This document shows positions 3,066 through 62,959 of a stretch of 64,000 nucleotides of DNA, in pieces. Origin of the DNA: Eledone cirrhosa (taxonomy: Eukaryota); assembly GCA_964016885.1 (NCBI GenBank), contig OZ024758.1, positions 20,460,001 to 20,524,000 of the forward strand, read 5' to 3'. Numbering within the stretch: the first letter of the stretch is position 1; each line of letters begins with the position of its first letter. The notes beneath the pieces are model-generated. The model did no database searches and was not told the origin of the DNA. It saw only the letters and a list, made by a program, of their open reading frames with translations. A program made the translations under genes and the position numbers.

Positions 3066-3726
3066 CGTAGTAGAGATTTTAATCCCAATATTTCGGGCTC
3101 ACGCCCATCAACGGGGGAAAAGTTCCAAAAGGGGGGAAAACAGGCCAAGCGGAGAAAGTGTTGATGTCGTTAAGACAGGAATGCCGTTATGGGGAGAAAA
3201 ATATTTAAAATTTAAACGAGGGAGAGAATGCGCGTGCGCGTGATAAGCTGTGGCAAAAGCTACTGACCAAATGGGTTAAATCAAGAGGGTGCGTTAGCGT
3301 GTGAAAGCCTTAAGATATGTGTATGTAAATATATATGTGTGTGTGACTGTGTGTGTATAGGTGTAAGTGTGTATATGTGTGAGTGTGTGTGTGTGTGAAA
3401 GGTAGTGGGCTGTAGAAGTTGGAAATCAAAGGGTGTGAAAGGTGGTAGGTTGTAAAATATGTGTGCGTGTATAAATATAGAAGTGTGTGTGTGTAAGCGT
3501 ATGGGTATACATGTGTGTGTGTAACTGTGTATGTATATGTGTGAGTGCGTTTGTGTGTGAAAGATAGTGGGCTGTAGAAGCTGGAAATCAAAGGGTGTGA
3601 AAGGTGGTAGGTTGTAAAAACATGTGTGCGTGTAAAATATAGAAGTGTGTGTGCATGCGTATGGGTATGCATATACGTGCGTGTGTGTGAATATAACAGG
3701 CCGTAGGCTGTGAATGGTCATTATGG

Positions 3727-4359
3727 TTAAATTAGCCATGTCAGCTCATTTCTCTCGGCCCGGTTGTTAAGTGGGGGTCTGAGGTTCTTAATAACAAGTG
3801 CTTCCTTTATCCTTAAGGATCCGATGCTGCGTTCAGTCGCTAGGACTGTGACCAAGGGTCTACCCTGTGGGTTTCCGCATTTGAGGATATGTTTACGGAA
3901 GGAAGATGCGTTGGTGTTGATATGTTCCTTGATACGAACATGTAGGGGTCGGATGGTGCTACCTATGTAAAACTTGTTACATTTATCGCATTGAATCTTA
4001 TATACGACATAGGTGCGTAGGCAATCTGCCCCCCGTATCGGGCAGTTGCTGAGGGAACAAGTCCTATCTGCCTCGTAGGGTTTGTTGGAGAGGCATCTTC
4101 GCAGCGAAGGTCCTGTGTGGGCCAAATGTATGTCAAGTCCCTCCGTACGTATGGCCCTGCGGATGGCGTTCGTGGTACATTCACTCAGGTGGGGGATTTT
4201 AAAGAAGCACCTGCTAATATTAAGTTTTCTAGTGGGTGTCGGTCTACTGGGTCTGGGGTCTCTAATTCCGTTAATCAGTCGCTTGGGATAACCATTAGAT
4301 CTGAGTAGATTACGGAATTGCGTGGTATGGGTGAGACCACCCATCGGGTCGCTGCATCT
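3727..4359 (-). pseudogene. 5'-truncated copy of PLE ORF 3' end (thumb/GIY-YIG) in the tandem pLTR
   Basis: Translation RCSDPMGG...NELTWLI is identical to the C-terminus of the 879-aa ORF. Confidence 0.93.
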
Positions 4360-5047
4360 CCCCAACAACGCTAAGAGAGGCTATGTCCTAAATGAACTGA
4401 CACGGATCACTAACAGATGCAGCGACCCGATGGGTGGTCTCACCCATACCACGCAATTCCGTAATCTACTCAGATCTAATGGTTATCCCAAGCGACTGAT
4501 TAACGGAATTAGAGACCCCAGACCCAGTAGACCGACACCCACTAGAAAACTTAATATTAGCAGGTGCTTCTTTAAAATCCCCCACCTGAGTGAATGTACC
4601 ACGAACGCCATCCGCAGGGCCATACGTACGGAGGGACTTGACATACATTTGGCCCACACAGGACCTTCGCTGCGAAGATGCCTCTCCAACAAACCCTACG
4701 AGGCAGATAGGACTTGTTCCCTCAGCAACTGCCCGATACGGGGGGCAGATTGCCTACGCACCTATGTCGTATATAAGATTCAATGCGATAAATGTAACAA
4801 GTTTTACATAGGTAGCACCATCCGACCCCTACATGTTCGTATCAAGGAACATATCAACACCAACGCATCTTCCTTCCGTAAACATATCCTCAAATGCGGA
4901 AACCCACAGGGTAGACCCTTGGTCACAGTCCTAGCGACTGAACGCAGCATCGGATCCTTAAGGATAAAGGAAGCACTTGTTATTAAGAACCTCAGACCCC
5001 CACTTAACAACCGGGCCGAGAGAAATGAGCTGACATGGCTAATTTAA
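4358..5047 (+). pseudogene. 5'-truncated inverted copy of PLE ORF 3' end
   Basis: LPNNAKRGYV...NELTWLI is identical to the ORF C-terminus. Confidence 0.93.
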
Positions 5048-5655
5048 CCATAATGACCATTCACAGCCTACGGCCTGTTATATTCACACACACGCACGTA
5101 TATGCATACCCATACGCATGCACACACACTTCTATATTTTACACGCACACATGTTTTTACAACCTACCACCTTTCACACCCTTTGATTTCCAGCTTCTAC
5201 AGCCCACTATCTTTCACACACAAACGCACTCACACATATACATACACAGTTACACACACACATGTATACCCATACGCTTACACACACACACTTCTATATT
5301 TATACACGCACACATATTTTACAACCTACCACCTTTCACACCCTTTGATTTCCAACTTCTACAGCCCACTACCTTTCACACACACACACACTCACACATA
5401 TACACACTTACACCTATACACACACAGTCACACACACATATATATTTACATACACATATCTTAAGGCTTTCACACGCTAACGCACCCTCTTGATTTAACC
5501 CATTTGGTCAGTAGCTTTTGCCACAGCTTATCACGCGCACGCGCATTCTCTCCCTCGTTTAAATTTTAAATATTTTTCTCCCCATAACGGCATTCCTGTC
5601 TTAACGACATCAACACTTTCTCCGCTTGGCCTGTTTTCCCCCCTTTTGGAACTTT

Positions 5656-5691
5656 TCCCCCGTTGATGGGCGTGAGCCCGAAATATTGGGA
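5656..5691 (+). ncRNA. Degenerate minimal hammerhead-like motif of the active PLE (mirror 3083-3118 -)
   Basis: TCCC CCGTTGA T GGGC-GTGA-GCCC GAAA TA TT GGGA; core differs from CUGAUGA at two positions. Confidence 0.6.
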
Positions 5692-5875
5692 TTAAAATCT
5701 CTACTACGGTAACCCTTCTACCTTTGTTTTGTTTTCATCTTTGTCTCTCTCAACTTTCACTTTCACCTGTTTTTCCTATCTATATTTCACTTCCTACCTC
5801 GAGATTTCCCTTTGCATTGTTGTGGCTTTCTTAAATACGTATTTTTATATATATATATATATATATATATATATA

Positions 5876-6250
5876 TGAATAAAGTGGTCCTTCATCAGTG
5901 ATCTTCCAACCATCACAGGTATTTCTTCCTTTTAAAGACCATATACCTCCGGTTGGTGCGAGCAACGGCTACACAAGTCGTTGGGACACGTAAATAAAAG
6001 GAACAGCGAGAGTGTAAAGAAACAAAAATGTTGAAGCAACGAAAAGTGAGGAAGAACGAGTCAAGTCCCAAATTTCCATGAATATAAGTTCGGTGAAATC
6101 GTGAACGAGAGAGAATAAAGACCATCAAACCTGGTTGGAATGTGAGCAAAGAAGGAATTCCGTACAGGTCTAACGGGAGGAAGAAGGAATCTAGTCTGTG
6201 AATTCGGTGAACATAAGTTCTGTGAAATCGTAGACGAGAAAGTAGAAACA
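5876..6250 (-). mobile_element. Repeat fragment ending CTGATGAAGGACCACTTTATTC-(TA)n; same motif at 48161
   Basis: Shared ACTGATGAAGGA.CA.CTTTATTCATAT; internal ~128-bp-spaced duplication (6087/6215). Confidence 0.4.
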
Positions 6251-60613: not shown

Positions 60614-60710
60614 ATATATATATATATATATATATGTGTGTGTGTGTGTGTGTGTGTGTGTGTGTGTGTGTGAAAGTGTGTGTGTGTATGTATGTGTATA
60701 TATATATATA

Positions 60711-61318
60711 TGTCAGGTCACCAGTTGGTGCTACTGGTAACATGTATCCCAGTACAACCTGACTCATGGTCGGGTCGTTGGCGACTAAACTGGCAACCCC
60801 ACCGAGGTTTCTTGGTGAGGAGGGTGAAGTTGGACATCCTGCAGGACTAAAAACAAAACCTGTCAAAGGGCAAAGGAGCTCTTAAGAGTCAATGGCCATC
60901 CAAAATCACCGGGAGAGATGACCCCTTAGTCTTTGTCAAGGCAGAATTCTAGGAGAAGGAAAACTCTGATATAACACCTGCAACCCTGATGGTATCCAAT
61001 GATGTTGACTTGTTCTTCTTTTTGGTAAATATCATCTTGGTTAAGAGAGTGGGACTGGCTTTGTGCAGTGCCTTTGCTCACTATAAAAGCTTCACGGCAC
61101 AGGCATTGCTTTATATCTGGAGATCTCTCTGCACTTGTCGTCACAGGGTACCATGGGCCTAGCACTGTGTCAATAATTGTCACAAGTGTAGTGTTTGTAC
61201 CAGAGTTTTCAAGTCGCTGGCTGGACTAAAAAGTCACACTCGTTCAGCGCATTGGTAGGGGTTCTTCTACATGGATATAAAGTAGTGGCCGTACTCGAAA
61301 ACGAGGTGGCAGCCACCA
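60711..61318 (+). mobile_element. Family F ~608-bp element
   Basis: Inverse of 20764-21373; TGTCAGG...GCCACCA in TA. Confidence 0.8.
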
Positions 61319-61969
61319 TATATATATATATATATATGAGTGTGTGTATTTGTATATATATATATATATATATATGTATATTTATGTATATATGTATATG
61401 CATGTATATATATATATATATATATATATATATATATATATATATATATATATATATATATATATATATATATGTATATATATATGCATTTATATATGCA
61501 TATATATATATATATATATATATATATATATATATAGTAATATTTATATTTATATATATATATGTTTGATACAGTTCTAAATATGTACGATAGTATTAAG
61601 TACTAGCTGGTTACCAGTATGGAAAAAGGCTCAATGAAAATGTTTATGTGTTTTCGACTTTCGTCAAATCGGACAGAGGAAACAATGTTTCCATTGGTCT
61701 TTCTAATTGCTAATACCCTCTATCGGTCGCAACTCCAGGTAGAAGGAGCAATGTGAAATAAAGTGTCTTGACCAAAGATATAACGCATTGCCCGGTCCGG
61801 GAATCTAACACACAACCTCATGATTTCGAATCTAATCCTCTATATATATATATATATATATATATATATATATATATATATATATATATATATTATATAT
61901 ATATATATATATATATATATATATATATATATATATATATATATATATATATATATATATATATATATA

Positions 61970-62722
61970 TAACCATATTTATATTATTATGTGCGCTTTC
62001 AGCTGATAAAATACAGATTTGTTTTATAAATAAATATTGACATACCCGGAAAAAAGACAACCTTAACGGTTGGAGCTTCCTGGATAGTGGAGATAATTTT
62101 GTGGGTAATATAAATATTGTGGGTAATATAAAGTTATGAGTGAGTATGCAAATGAGTGTCCGAAAAGTTGAAAAGATAACGGTTTATTTAAATTAAACTG
62201 TTGGAAGAGGATGATATTTAAGGGAGTGAGAAAAAGAAAAATAGAAAAGAAAGGAGAAAGAGATAATTTGTAAGAAAGAACGATTATACATAGTGACATT
62301 GAAGAAAGTCAGAATGAATGAAGAAATAAGTGTTAATGGAAAAATATATATAGCGTAAATATATCTAAGTGAAAATTTAAACATCCAAATAATTCTAAAT
62401 TTATGAAAATTTACGACAGTTTACAAAGGAATAACTACTTAATTATATTATAAAAACAGTAGGGAAGTATAAAGGAAGTTAGAAGTGATTTTTTTAAGAT
62501 CTCAAATGATTCCAATGATTAAATGTTATAAAATTAAAAGTGTATCTTAAGAATATAATTAAAACATAAAACATATGTTATTTTATAAGAAGTCATAAAT
62601 TTGTCTTAAGAATATAATTAAAGCGTAAACCATAGGTTATTTTATAAGAAGTCATATTTGCTATAAATAAAAAAAAAATGTTTAAGATTGTTGAATCCCA
62701 ACAAATTAAATATAACCTATGC
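61970..62722. mobile_element. Family K-related element (minus-strand piece with HHR partly deleted; long end at right)
   Basis: TTTTATAAATAAATATTGACATACCC matches 12653-12678; ATCCCAACAAATTAAATATAACCT matches the inverse of 12445-12468. Confidence 0.55.
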
Positions 62723-62735
62723 ATATATCTATATA

Positions 62736-62959
62736 TAGTGGTAGAACACTGGAAGGTAATATCCGTAGTGGTAGAGTAGTCCGTCCATGGGACGAGTTAG
62801 GTTGAGGTGGTTACACAACAGTTTGTTCACCATACCGAGAACAATTGTTTCACCTTAGCGGATCCTCATCTCGTAATGGACATGTTCATACGAGCTGTGG
62901 ATCCGCTAAGGTGAAACAATTGTTCTCGGTATGGTGAAGTAACTGTTGTGTAACCACTT
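62736..62959. mobile_element. Family H fold-back element (arms 62807-62875 / 62889-62957), HHRs 62836-62873 (-) and 62891-62928 (+)
   Basis: Arm consensus CGAG CTGAGGA T CC-GCTAA-GG T GAAA CAATTG TT CTCG. Confidence 0.85.

Follow-up and report, generated by a model that had tools for sequence, protein, structure and literature searches.

Hammerhead motifs probably left by about a dozen families of Penelope-like elements in a 64-kb window of the Eledone cirrhosa genome

Hammerheads of Penelope-like elements (PLEs) have been described as motifs with a palindromic helix III that fall into many families per genome, occur in opposite-strand pairs 100-700 bp apart, and cleave only as dimers or trimers (Cervera and De la Pena, 2014; PMC4209133). 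An extra nucleotide together with a G10.1-C11.1 pair is typical of the published minimal hammerheads (PMC4209133). Small dimeric variants from PLEs, found by Lunse, Weinberg and Breaker (RNA Biol 14:1499) and summarized in PMC6765202, have a short palindromic stem III and cleave as dimers. The elements of the EN+ class are laid out as a partial tandem with an adjacent inverted copy and a tail of 30-40 bp (PMC8557442). In the case of an element of Anolis, reverse transcription is primed internally at this tail, and mutants of its hammerhead insert unimpaired in vitro (PMC11167929).

How does a locus of the octopus Eledone cirrhosa compare with these systems? The window analysed here, a stretch of 64,000 nucleotides, had been credited in a first-pass annotation with more than 20 minimal hammerheads of type I. 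All 23 sites indeed turn out to be hammerhead-shaped or hammerhead-derived, with their starts exact or at most 6 nt off, but the full core, by which we mean CUGANGA, GAAA, U16.1, H17 and a stem I of at least 4 bp, is present at only 14 of them (6798, 8576, 9454, 10181, 12574, 12763, 22327, 22870, 32396, 33693, 48301, 48824, 60302 and 60509). Since the cores of the other nine are altered (3083, 5656, 9275, 12076, 18610, 43835, 55703, 62830 and 62891), the idea of more than 20 working ribozymes is not borne out. The label "minimal" is also loose, as stem II reaches 104-105 nt at 32396 and 33693. The comparison with shuffled sequence, which had been proposed as a check, gave 12-14 strong matches against 0.1-0.2 per local shuffle. 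A strict descriptor matched four times against a mean of 0.01 in 100 local dinucleotide shuffles, and it found only four sites because stem II has mismatches. A relaxed descriptor gave 12 matches at a score of at least 8 (mean 0.12 and maximum 1 in 25 shuffles), and one without the stem II requirement gave 14 matches with zero deviation, which correspond to 13 sites with one overlap (mean 0.17 in 12 shuffles). Even bare CUGANGA occurs 37 times in the window against 16.6 ± 4.0 after shuffling.

The 23 sites are not independent: they include seven pairs, each apparently one insertion, so that about 16 events are represented. These belong to about 11 families, or about a dozen. The local density is about one intact motif per 4.5 kb. 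At least one further intact motif had been missed, a canonical minimal hammerhead at 17153..17187 on the minus strand, identified by eye, with an ACGU palindrome and a stem I of 3 bp; decayed hammerheads at 19540-19640, 36785, 47337 and 61962 had likewise been passed over. The Rfam hammerhead gave no match at the gathering threshold in 5600-13000, and no hammerhead was found among the 150 listed of 234 weak whole-window matches; those listed are mostly (TA)n hairpins fitting miRNA models. A covariance model built from eight motifs added only three weak sites and did not recover 32396 and 33693. A search for tRNA genes found none.

For one lineage the PLE origin proposed earlier can be read directly, since its motif lies within the pLTR of an intact element. 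An ORF of 879 amino acids (276..2915, minus strand) encodes a reverse transcriptase with YVDD and DKG, followed by a C-x4-C-x6-C linker and, at the C-terminus, by an endonuclease of GIY-YIG type with CCHH. Pfam assigns RVT_1 with an E-value of 2e-11 and GIY-YIG with 2.8e-4, the latter at 21.6 bits, under the cut-off of 22.6; Y789, G802, R811 and E855 as well as C793, C796, H815 and H826 of the endonuclease are invariant in all eight aligned proteins. A single ORF with this domain order and DKG is that of an EN+ PLE; Naiad and Chlamys, considered as well, have an N-terminal endonuclease and DKA, neither of which is seen in the ORF. In a quick tree of 70 rows, which contains no named references, the ORF falls in an 11-row clade with an SH-aLRT of 99. 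Upstream of the ORF lies a 5'-truncated partial-tandem copy, or pLTR (2927..4358, minus), which comprises the 3' end of the ORF, the 3' UTR, the hammerhead and the 5' leader; positions 1-908 are identical to 3452-4359. It is joined by an inverted 5'-truncated copy (4358..5847, plus), which does not differ from the tandem copy over 1432 nt, stops 12 nt before the position of the ATG, and adjoins (TA)n at 5848. The 3' ends of this element family, 2927 and 2885, are 42 nt apart, the first 12 nt short of the ATG and the second 30 nt beyond it, and thus define a tail. The partial tandem, the adjacent inverted copy and the tail together give the EN+ PLE layout.

The motif in the pLTR (3083..3118, minus) is shaped like a minimal hammerhead with an extra U, a stem II of 4 bp and an AUAU palindrome, and its H17 (position 3087) precedes the ATG by 172 nt. 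Its core reads CCGUUGA, that is, U4C and A6U, and the identical variant is found in the inverted copy (5656..5691, plus). Judged from its sequence, this core is expected to be weak or dead. We found no published description of a family-wide U4C+A6U core in the literature text available to us. A decayed motif of the same lineage (43835..43872, plus; CAGAUGA with U4A, and U16.1C) is linked to the element through its shared flank and ORF start, and thus to the pLTR by homology; its stub extends over the first 30 nt of the ORF and then gives way to (TA)n, and its alignment with 3083 shows, by eye, two compensatory changes in stem II. The CCGUUGA core is also present in a contig of a related sequencing run, whose eight substitutions and two gaps all lie outside the motif. 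Among the rows listed, 40 of 104, no substitution falls in the 36-nt motif, while at least 21 places are substituted in 323 flanking nucleotides (P ~0.1). In run X1, the summed contig depth, which is not copy number, rises from about 400 in the ORF to 1e4-1.6e5 over 2880-3200, and in run X7 the depth peaks on 3080-3119 at about 20,000 against 72 for the neighbouring bin. In all four runs, loose ends at 2885 continue into (TA)n (70 contigs, 316 reads, 5 and 41 contigs), and none of the loose ends listed begins at the predicted cut site, 3087/3086. Among related PLE loci, 22 of 79 have such a motif, 22 of 25 matches are on the ORF strand (0-2 matches per shuffled set), and 24 of the 25 keep catalytic cores; in L001, the closest of the full-length relatives, CUGAUGA follows the match at a distance of 211 nt.

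Stem III was said to be palindromic in most motifs, and this stands: from A15.1 to U16.1 it is self-complementary in 17 of the 23 if G.U is allowed, among them 11 of the 14 motifs with intact cores (eight perfectly, three with G.U). Of ten motifs with a six-base palindrome, nine have a C·C mismatch as the fourth pair of stem II, three pairs above the core. UAUAUA is inserted at 8576..8630 (plus), 10181..10254 (minus), 22327..22388 (plus), 60509..60561 (plus) and in the A14G copy at 18610..18663 (minus); the inverted partner of 60509, at 60302..60354 (minus), has UAUAUG and the only U·C. UAUGUA is shared by the inverted partners 12574..12639 (minus) and 12763..12828 (plus), and CGAUCG by 32396..32538 (minus; stem II of 104 nt) and 33693..33836 (plus; 105 nt), which are again inverted partners. 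The only near-identical pair on the same strand, 48301..48380 and 48824..48901 (both minus, 523 nt apart), has CUAAUUAG inserts, and CAAUUG is found in the two motifs at 62830..62879 (minus) and 62891..62928 (plus), whose cores are damaged at the centre of an inversion. No palindrome is found at 6798..6854 (minus; insert of 7 nt), in the family of 9454..9498 (plus; GGAC), with its G12C inverted partner 9275..9319 (minus) and 22870..22914 (plus; GAAC), at 43835, or at 12076..12115 (minus), which is hammerhead-derived with a heavily altered core. The site at 55703..55739 (plus; A9G) is weak, decayed and minimal-hammerhead-like; it scores 4 with the descriptor that sets no stem II requirement, lies 901 nt from the nearest (TA)n, and could be a chance match. 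The extra nucleotide behind A9, with G10.1-C11.1 coming next, is present at 3083/5656, at 43835 and in the 9454 family; the long-palindrome group does not have it and shows a variable first pair instead (GU, UU, AU, CA or GC). We found no published description of C·C at pair 4 in the text available to us, and none of four long-palindrome candidates in the 79 related PLE loci has it. Viral contigs were also considered as a source of this subtype, but all 11 pattern matches there were without stems and thus due to chance.

Folding energies agree with a stem III of the dimer type, as had been supposed: an intramolecular hairpin would cost +1.5 to +6.4 kcal/mol, while the 6-8 nt palindromes, paired as self-duplexes, would gain -2.2 to -10. 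Pairing seems to have been selected in the parent elements, as was also suggested, since the covariation score is 0.494, which none of 500 shuffles reached and slid controls (0.03-0.19) did not approach; this was computed on eight related sequences, so that the shuffle count is not a probability, and the covariation of the stems, as far as aligned sequences go, supports such selection. On the other hand, the clusters are not a source of dimers. Six of the seven pairs are inverted and therefore cannot dimerise in cis, which leaves only 48301/48824, and in read-through RNA of close pairs 89-98% of the motif is predicted to be buried in a long hairpin (all four folded pairs). The two motifs proposed as a starting pair for cleavage experiments, 10181 and 8576, are on opposite strands and belong to different families.

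Then, how did so many motifs come to lie in this window? The best explanation, to which we give a probability of about 85%, is that they are hammerheads which about a dozen PLE families carried close to their 3' ends, left as short stubs, 5'-truncated or inverted, beside (TA)n; dimer cleavage in the parents is predicted to be weak, and most stubs would be inert. (TA)n is found within 200 nt of the 3' end of the motif in 18 of the 23, while the figure is 7 of 23 on the upstream side and 23% for random positions. Near the other motifs, tblastn and HMM searches found no ORF remnant beyond 5100, so that for all but one lineage the PLE link rests on anatomy, and parent ORFs are postulated for the remaining families. 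Also counting against this explanation are the three intact motifs without a palindrome, the lack of the extra nucleotide with G10.1-C11.1 in the long-palindrome group, the core of the one element seen to be intact, which is expected to be weak or dead, and the distance of 55703 from (TA)n. With the anole element as a model, the element protein would nick (TA)n, and reverse transcription would be primed inside the element RNA near the ATG. As the motif lies about 40-230 nt from the priming point in most copies, it would be copied in almost every aborted insertion, which would account for the high density of motifs, and template switching might give rise to the inverted pairs. It is to be noted that both sides of the scissile bond are present in the copies; therefore, the template was uncut or re-ligated.

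Intact scissile bonds would also follow from a circular template, and it might be imagined that some families are non-autonomous elements, either retrozyme monomers or SINE-like parasites of PLEs, moving as short hammerhead RNAs, possibly as circles. Most motifs are without nearby ORF remnants, and retrozyme monomers derived from pLTRs have been described (10.64898/2026.07.22.740005). However, none of the three tandem arrays with a period of at least 40, among 114 arrays, contains a motif, copies of one family have differing starts and are often inverted, and the 43835 stub ends within a real ORF start; we consider this improbable. Somewhat less doubtful, though still unlikely, is that the fold persists because it serves a non-catalytic function, such as RNA dimerisation or loading of an RT-EN dimer, with cleavage dispensable and the U4C+A6U family as its natural proof. 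A young intact element has the variant core, the contig of the related run has all its changes outside the motif, stem II differs from that of 43835 by compensatory changes although the core differs, the X7 depth peaks on the motif, insertion of hammerhead mutants in vitro points in the same direction (PMC11167929), and U4C and A6 changes each reduce activity (PMC3088659, PMC7151607). Against this, the contrast between motif and flank has only the P of ~0.1 given above, catalytic cores are kept in most other families and in nearly all matches of the related loci, U4C is still sufficient in vivo in a viroid (PMC3088659/PMC7151607), and a recent relaxed loss would give the same picture.

Can individual copies have been domesticated by the host to process its transcripts? 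The density is high and pLTRs may contain promoters (PMC6765202), but nine of 23 cores are altered, copies and flanks have decayed evenly, the motif would be masked in the inverted pairs, and no gene of the host was recognised in the window, which makes this very improbable. Chance matches in AT-rich, palindrome-rich DNA are a practically negligible explanation. (TA)n supplies palindromes freely, and the weak sites 55703 and 38018 score within the shuffled range, but the excess over local shuffles refutes it for the 14 intact sites, and the motifs form repeat families with covarying stems, which the viral-contig matches do not have.

Scattered truncated PLE hammerheads with dimer-type palindromes and opposite-strand pairs are a class known since 2014 (PMC4209133). 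It would be new if a currently mobile PLE family had fixed a U4C+A6U core with its stems and palindrome kept, either as a protein- or metal-assisted catalytic variant or as proof of a fold for dimerisation or RT loading, and if, in addition, at least four lineages of this genome had in common a subtype not yet described, in which a 6-nt palindrome goes with a conserved C·C that may be a tertiary or protein contact; this is a speculative thought, which we hold with rather low confidence. What does a PLE hammerhead do? For this question one genome offers a natural panel: a young intact element with a doubly altered core, the same-strand pair 48301/48824, and the subtype whose stem II mismatch is conserved. 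A genome-wide count would reach hundreds of thousands if the density of this one window held.

Compared with known systems, the motifs share with the PLE hammerheads of PMC4209133 the type I topology, the CUGANGA/GAAA core, the palindromic helix III, the large number of sequence families in one genome, the mostly single truncated copies and the opposite-strand pairs, and the rows of Hydra and D. willistoni there have, as here, a U left unpaired on either side of helix II and a long palindrome. In the text of its supplement there is neither an octopus entry nor a CCGUUGA, CCGAAGA or CCGAUGA string, and none of the long-palindrome rows of its Fig. S3 that were checked by eye has C·C as the fourth pair of stem II. 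Unlike the motifs described there, stem II reaches 105 nt here, and the density of about one intact motif per 4.5 kb compares with a count of about 9,000 for the Xenopus genome, obtained with a stricter descriptor. The short palindromic stem III is shared with the small dimeric variants of Lunse, Weinberg and Breaker, which may already include variants of core and stem II. Non-LTR retrozymes likewise have type I hammerheads in repeats that are low in GC and high in copy number (PMC7229834; 10.64898/2026.07.22.740005), but no head-to-tail units of 150-450 bp with a hammerhead were found in the window. With Neptune and Nematis (Craig et al., 2021; PMC8557442) the element shares the C-terminal GIY-YIG with CCHH, DKG, a Cys-rich linker, microsatellite targets, and the partial-tandem and inverted layout of Fig. 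2 of that paper, while its linker is C-x4-C-x6-C instead of CX2-5CxxC. PAc, a Poseidon element of Anolis (Frangieh et al., 2024; PMC11167929), has its cut site 26 nt inside the ORF and a catalytic core, whereas the site here is upstream of the ATG in a U4C+A6U core, and Poseidon is without the Cys linker of the protein here; what the two have in common is a hammerhead close to where the ORF begins, a tail delimited by two 3' ends, and AT-rich targets.

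Although the first-pass annotation had listed more than 20 type-I hammerheads in the window, and all 23 positions are indeed hammerhead-shaped or hammerhead-derived, the full core is retained at only 14, while the other nine, with which 12076, 43835, 62830 and 62891 are counted, have altered cores. The comparison with shuffled sequence came out in favor of the annotation: three descriptors gave 4, 12 and 14 matches, against 0.01, 0.12 and 0.17 in local dinucleotide shuffles. The score of 55703 is inside the range of shuffled sequence. A palindromic stem III was claimed for most motifs and is self-complementary in 17 of the 23, the exceptions being the 9275/9454/22870 family, 6798, 12076 and 43835. 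Since seven pairs each look like a single insertion, about 16 insertion events are to be counted, and about 11 families stand behind them. Outside the original list, the window has one further intact minimal hammerhead (17153-17187) and several decayed sites. Weak hammerhead-like sites at 22068 (-), 23941 (-) and 38018-38070 (-) could be decayed copies or chance. The GC content is 32%, and there are 128 TA microsatellite runs of at least (TA)6. The sequence has the look of animal DNA, with a microsatellite load and a dispersed repeat reminiscent of octopus.

One parent can be seen directly. The protein of the intact Penelope-like element (PLE; ORF 276-2915, minus strand) has DKG, YVDD, CCHH and a C-x4-C-x6-C linker, and its relatives are 24-52% identical. 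Upstream of the ORF lie two further copies, a 5'-truncated tandem one at 2927-4358 and an inverted one at 4358-5847. PMC8557442 gives this layout in the legend of its Fig. 2. With no differences over 908 nt and over 1432 nt, the copies indicate a very recent insertion. The motifs at 3083 and 5656 sit inside these repeats, with H17, the nucleotide 5' of the cleavage point, 172 nt before the ATG. The inverted copy terminates at (TA)n 12 nt before the ATG position, and the related stub at 43835 terminates at (TA)n 30 nt into the ORF; loose ends at 2885, which is the +30 position, read (TA)n in all four sequencing runs. Two ends with this spacing of 42 nt agree with the PLE tail, which PMC11167929 ties to two internal priming sites. 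The 3' UTR (3281-3725, 5050-5490) contains a CA-rich 162-nt repeat of 1.8 copies, 91% alike.

How about the other families? No ORF remnant was found near them in the window, and therefore their PLE origin is deduced from shared anatomy. (TA)n is found within 200 nt downstream of 18 of the 23 motifs and upstream of seven, compared with downstream of 23% of random positions. Of 79 related PLE loci, 22 have a motif of this kind, and the ORF strand bears 22 of the 25 matches. A U3-A8 core variant occurs at eight of these loci (L029, L046, L064-L067, L069 and L078). Copies of the 9454 family (33955-34284 (-), 9110-9160 and 23040-23072) stop about 20 nt past an ATG, beyond which one copy continues for about 27 codons; this ATG is likely to be the ORF start of the parent element. 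Another repeat family (36718-36854, 15283-15506, 58478-58530) has a CUGAAGA...GAAA motif at an inversion centre, so that stem I lacks its 5' strand; probably, it is a further hammerhead-bearing family. Two alike CUGAUGAAGGA half-motifs leading into TA-rich DNA, at 5880-5898 (-) and 48162-48185 (+), are possibly from a deleted hammerhead family.

Repeats of other kinds are also present. One repeat, about 190-210 nt long and dispersed through the window, has copies 72-90% alike, frequent head-to-tail pairs and no hammerhead; it is probably a SINE (6250-6680, 12930-13150, 14650-14880, 17235-17423, 24300-24690, 36190-36410, 37580-37830, 43295-43454, 50690-50880, 53310-53700); ARAGORN found no tRNA. 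An inverted duplicate of 684 nt, 95% identical (20726-21399 and 60687-61366) and with a partial copy at 49477-49632, has no noted hammerhead.

Motif, polarity, ends and one parent are observed as such, and the most likely mechanism is inferred from them. The RT-EN protein would nick (TA)n and then prime on a tandem transcript close to its ATG, and copying would usually halt or flip within a few hundred bases, so that nearly every stub would have a hammerhead and many would have two in inverted orientation. Because the copies span the scissile bond, the stub templates were uncut or re-ligated, which fits the normal in vitro insertion of hammerhead mutants described in PMC11167929. Within the parent transcript, stem III would allow pairing between the two pLTR copies (the tandem-copy repeats). 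Computed energies are +1.5 to +6.4 kcal/mol for hairpin III and -2.2 to -10 for self-pairing of the 6-8 nt palindromes; the intact element's AUAU comes out at +1.6. In the natural pair 48301/48824, one forced cross-copy helix is 1.9 kcal/mol above the free fold, versus 7.4 for two monomer hairpins. When inverted pairs were folded, 89-98% of each motif was bound to its antisense partner in all four cases, and hammerheads there would be masked.

The annotation's argument for selection in the parent elements gains support from two-sided changes in 10 of 18 pairs among eight UAUAUA-type motifs. Their covariation score of 0.494 is above all 500 shuffles and all slid controls, and it is to be taken as support and not as a P value, since these motifs are relatives of one another and also supplied the structure that was scored. 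Single copies decay: 9275 and 9454 differ at G12, and the sites 47337 and 19540 have decayed far. This would be expected of selection confined to the parents.

The intact element has the core CCGUUGA (U4C and A6U). A contig from another organism's run, covering 2940-3290, has eight substitutions and two gaps, none in the motif, and several of these changes are common to the majority in runs X1 and X13; no substitution lies within 3083-3118 among the 40 of 104 rows listed. Because all these changes spare the motif, the core is, on present sequences, a family trait. Against this stand the unreadable core letters of run X7 and a lack of motif changes that falls short of significance (P about 0.1). 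By eye, 43835 differs from the element by two compensatory stem II pairs. Locus L025, in the same 11-row clade but on a long branch, has U4C; the canonical core of the closest full-length relative speaks against the family trait. U4C and A6C each reduce hammerhead activity and neither abolishes it, according to PMC3088659 and PMC7151607; no hammerhead-core paper with A6U was among the matches listed, although Lunse et al. may cover this variant.

Pair 4 of stem II is an unpaired pyrimidine-C in all ten motifs that combine CUGANGA with a 6-nt insert (nine C·C, one U·C), a set that takes in one A14G and represents four or five lineages, the pattern having been noticed post hoc. The flanking pairs are formed in 8/10 and 10/10. 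The ten include the sequence-unrelated 32396/33693 family; the CAAUUG family and the 79 related PLE loci are without the mismatch. None of the papers listed in a literature search mentions a C-C mismatch, although Lunse et al. may cover it. The boldest reading, in which a mobile family retains the hammerhead fold despite two altered core positions and a C·C subtype exists beside it, seems rather unlikely to us.

The motifs do not qualify as retrozymes as described in PMC7229834: no head-to-tail arrays of 150-450 bp units were found in the window. A paper on octopus repeats, PMC13282606, lists recently active Penelope families, with hammerheads unmentioned in the portion seen, and no paper on octopus Penelope hammerheads was among those listed in a literature search. 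The class itself is present in many animals, molluscs included, according to PMC4209133, which already describes PLE hammerheads that have a palindromic helix III, fall into many families, occur as truncated singles or opposite-strand pairs, and cleave weakly and only as dimers. Its Hydra and D. willistoni rows combine an unpaired junction with a long palindrome, as here. Thus, the window has real hammerhead motifs of an already known class, and the first look was mostly correct.
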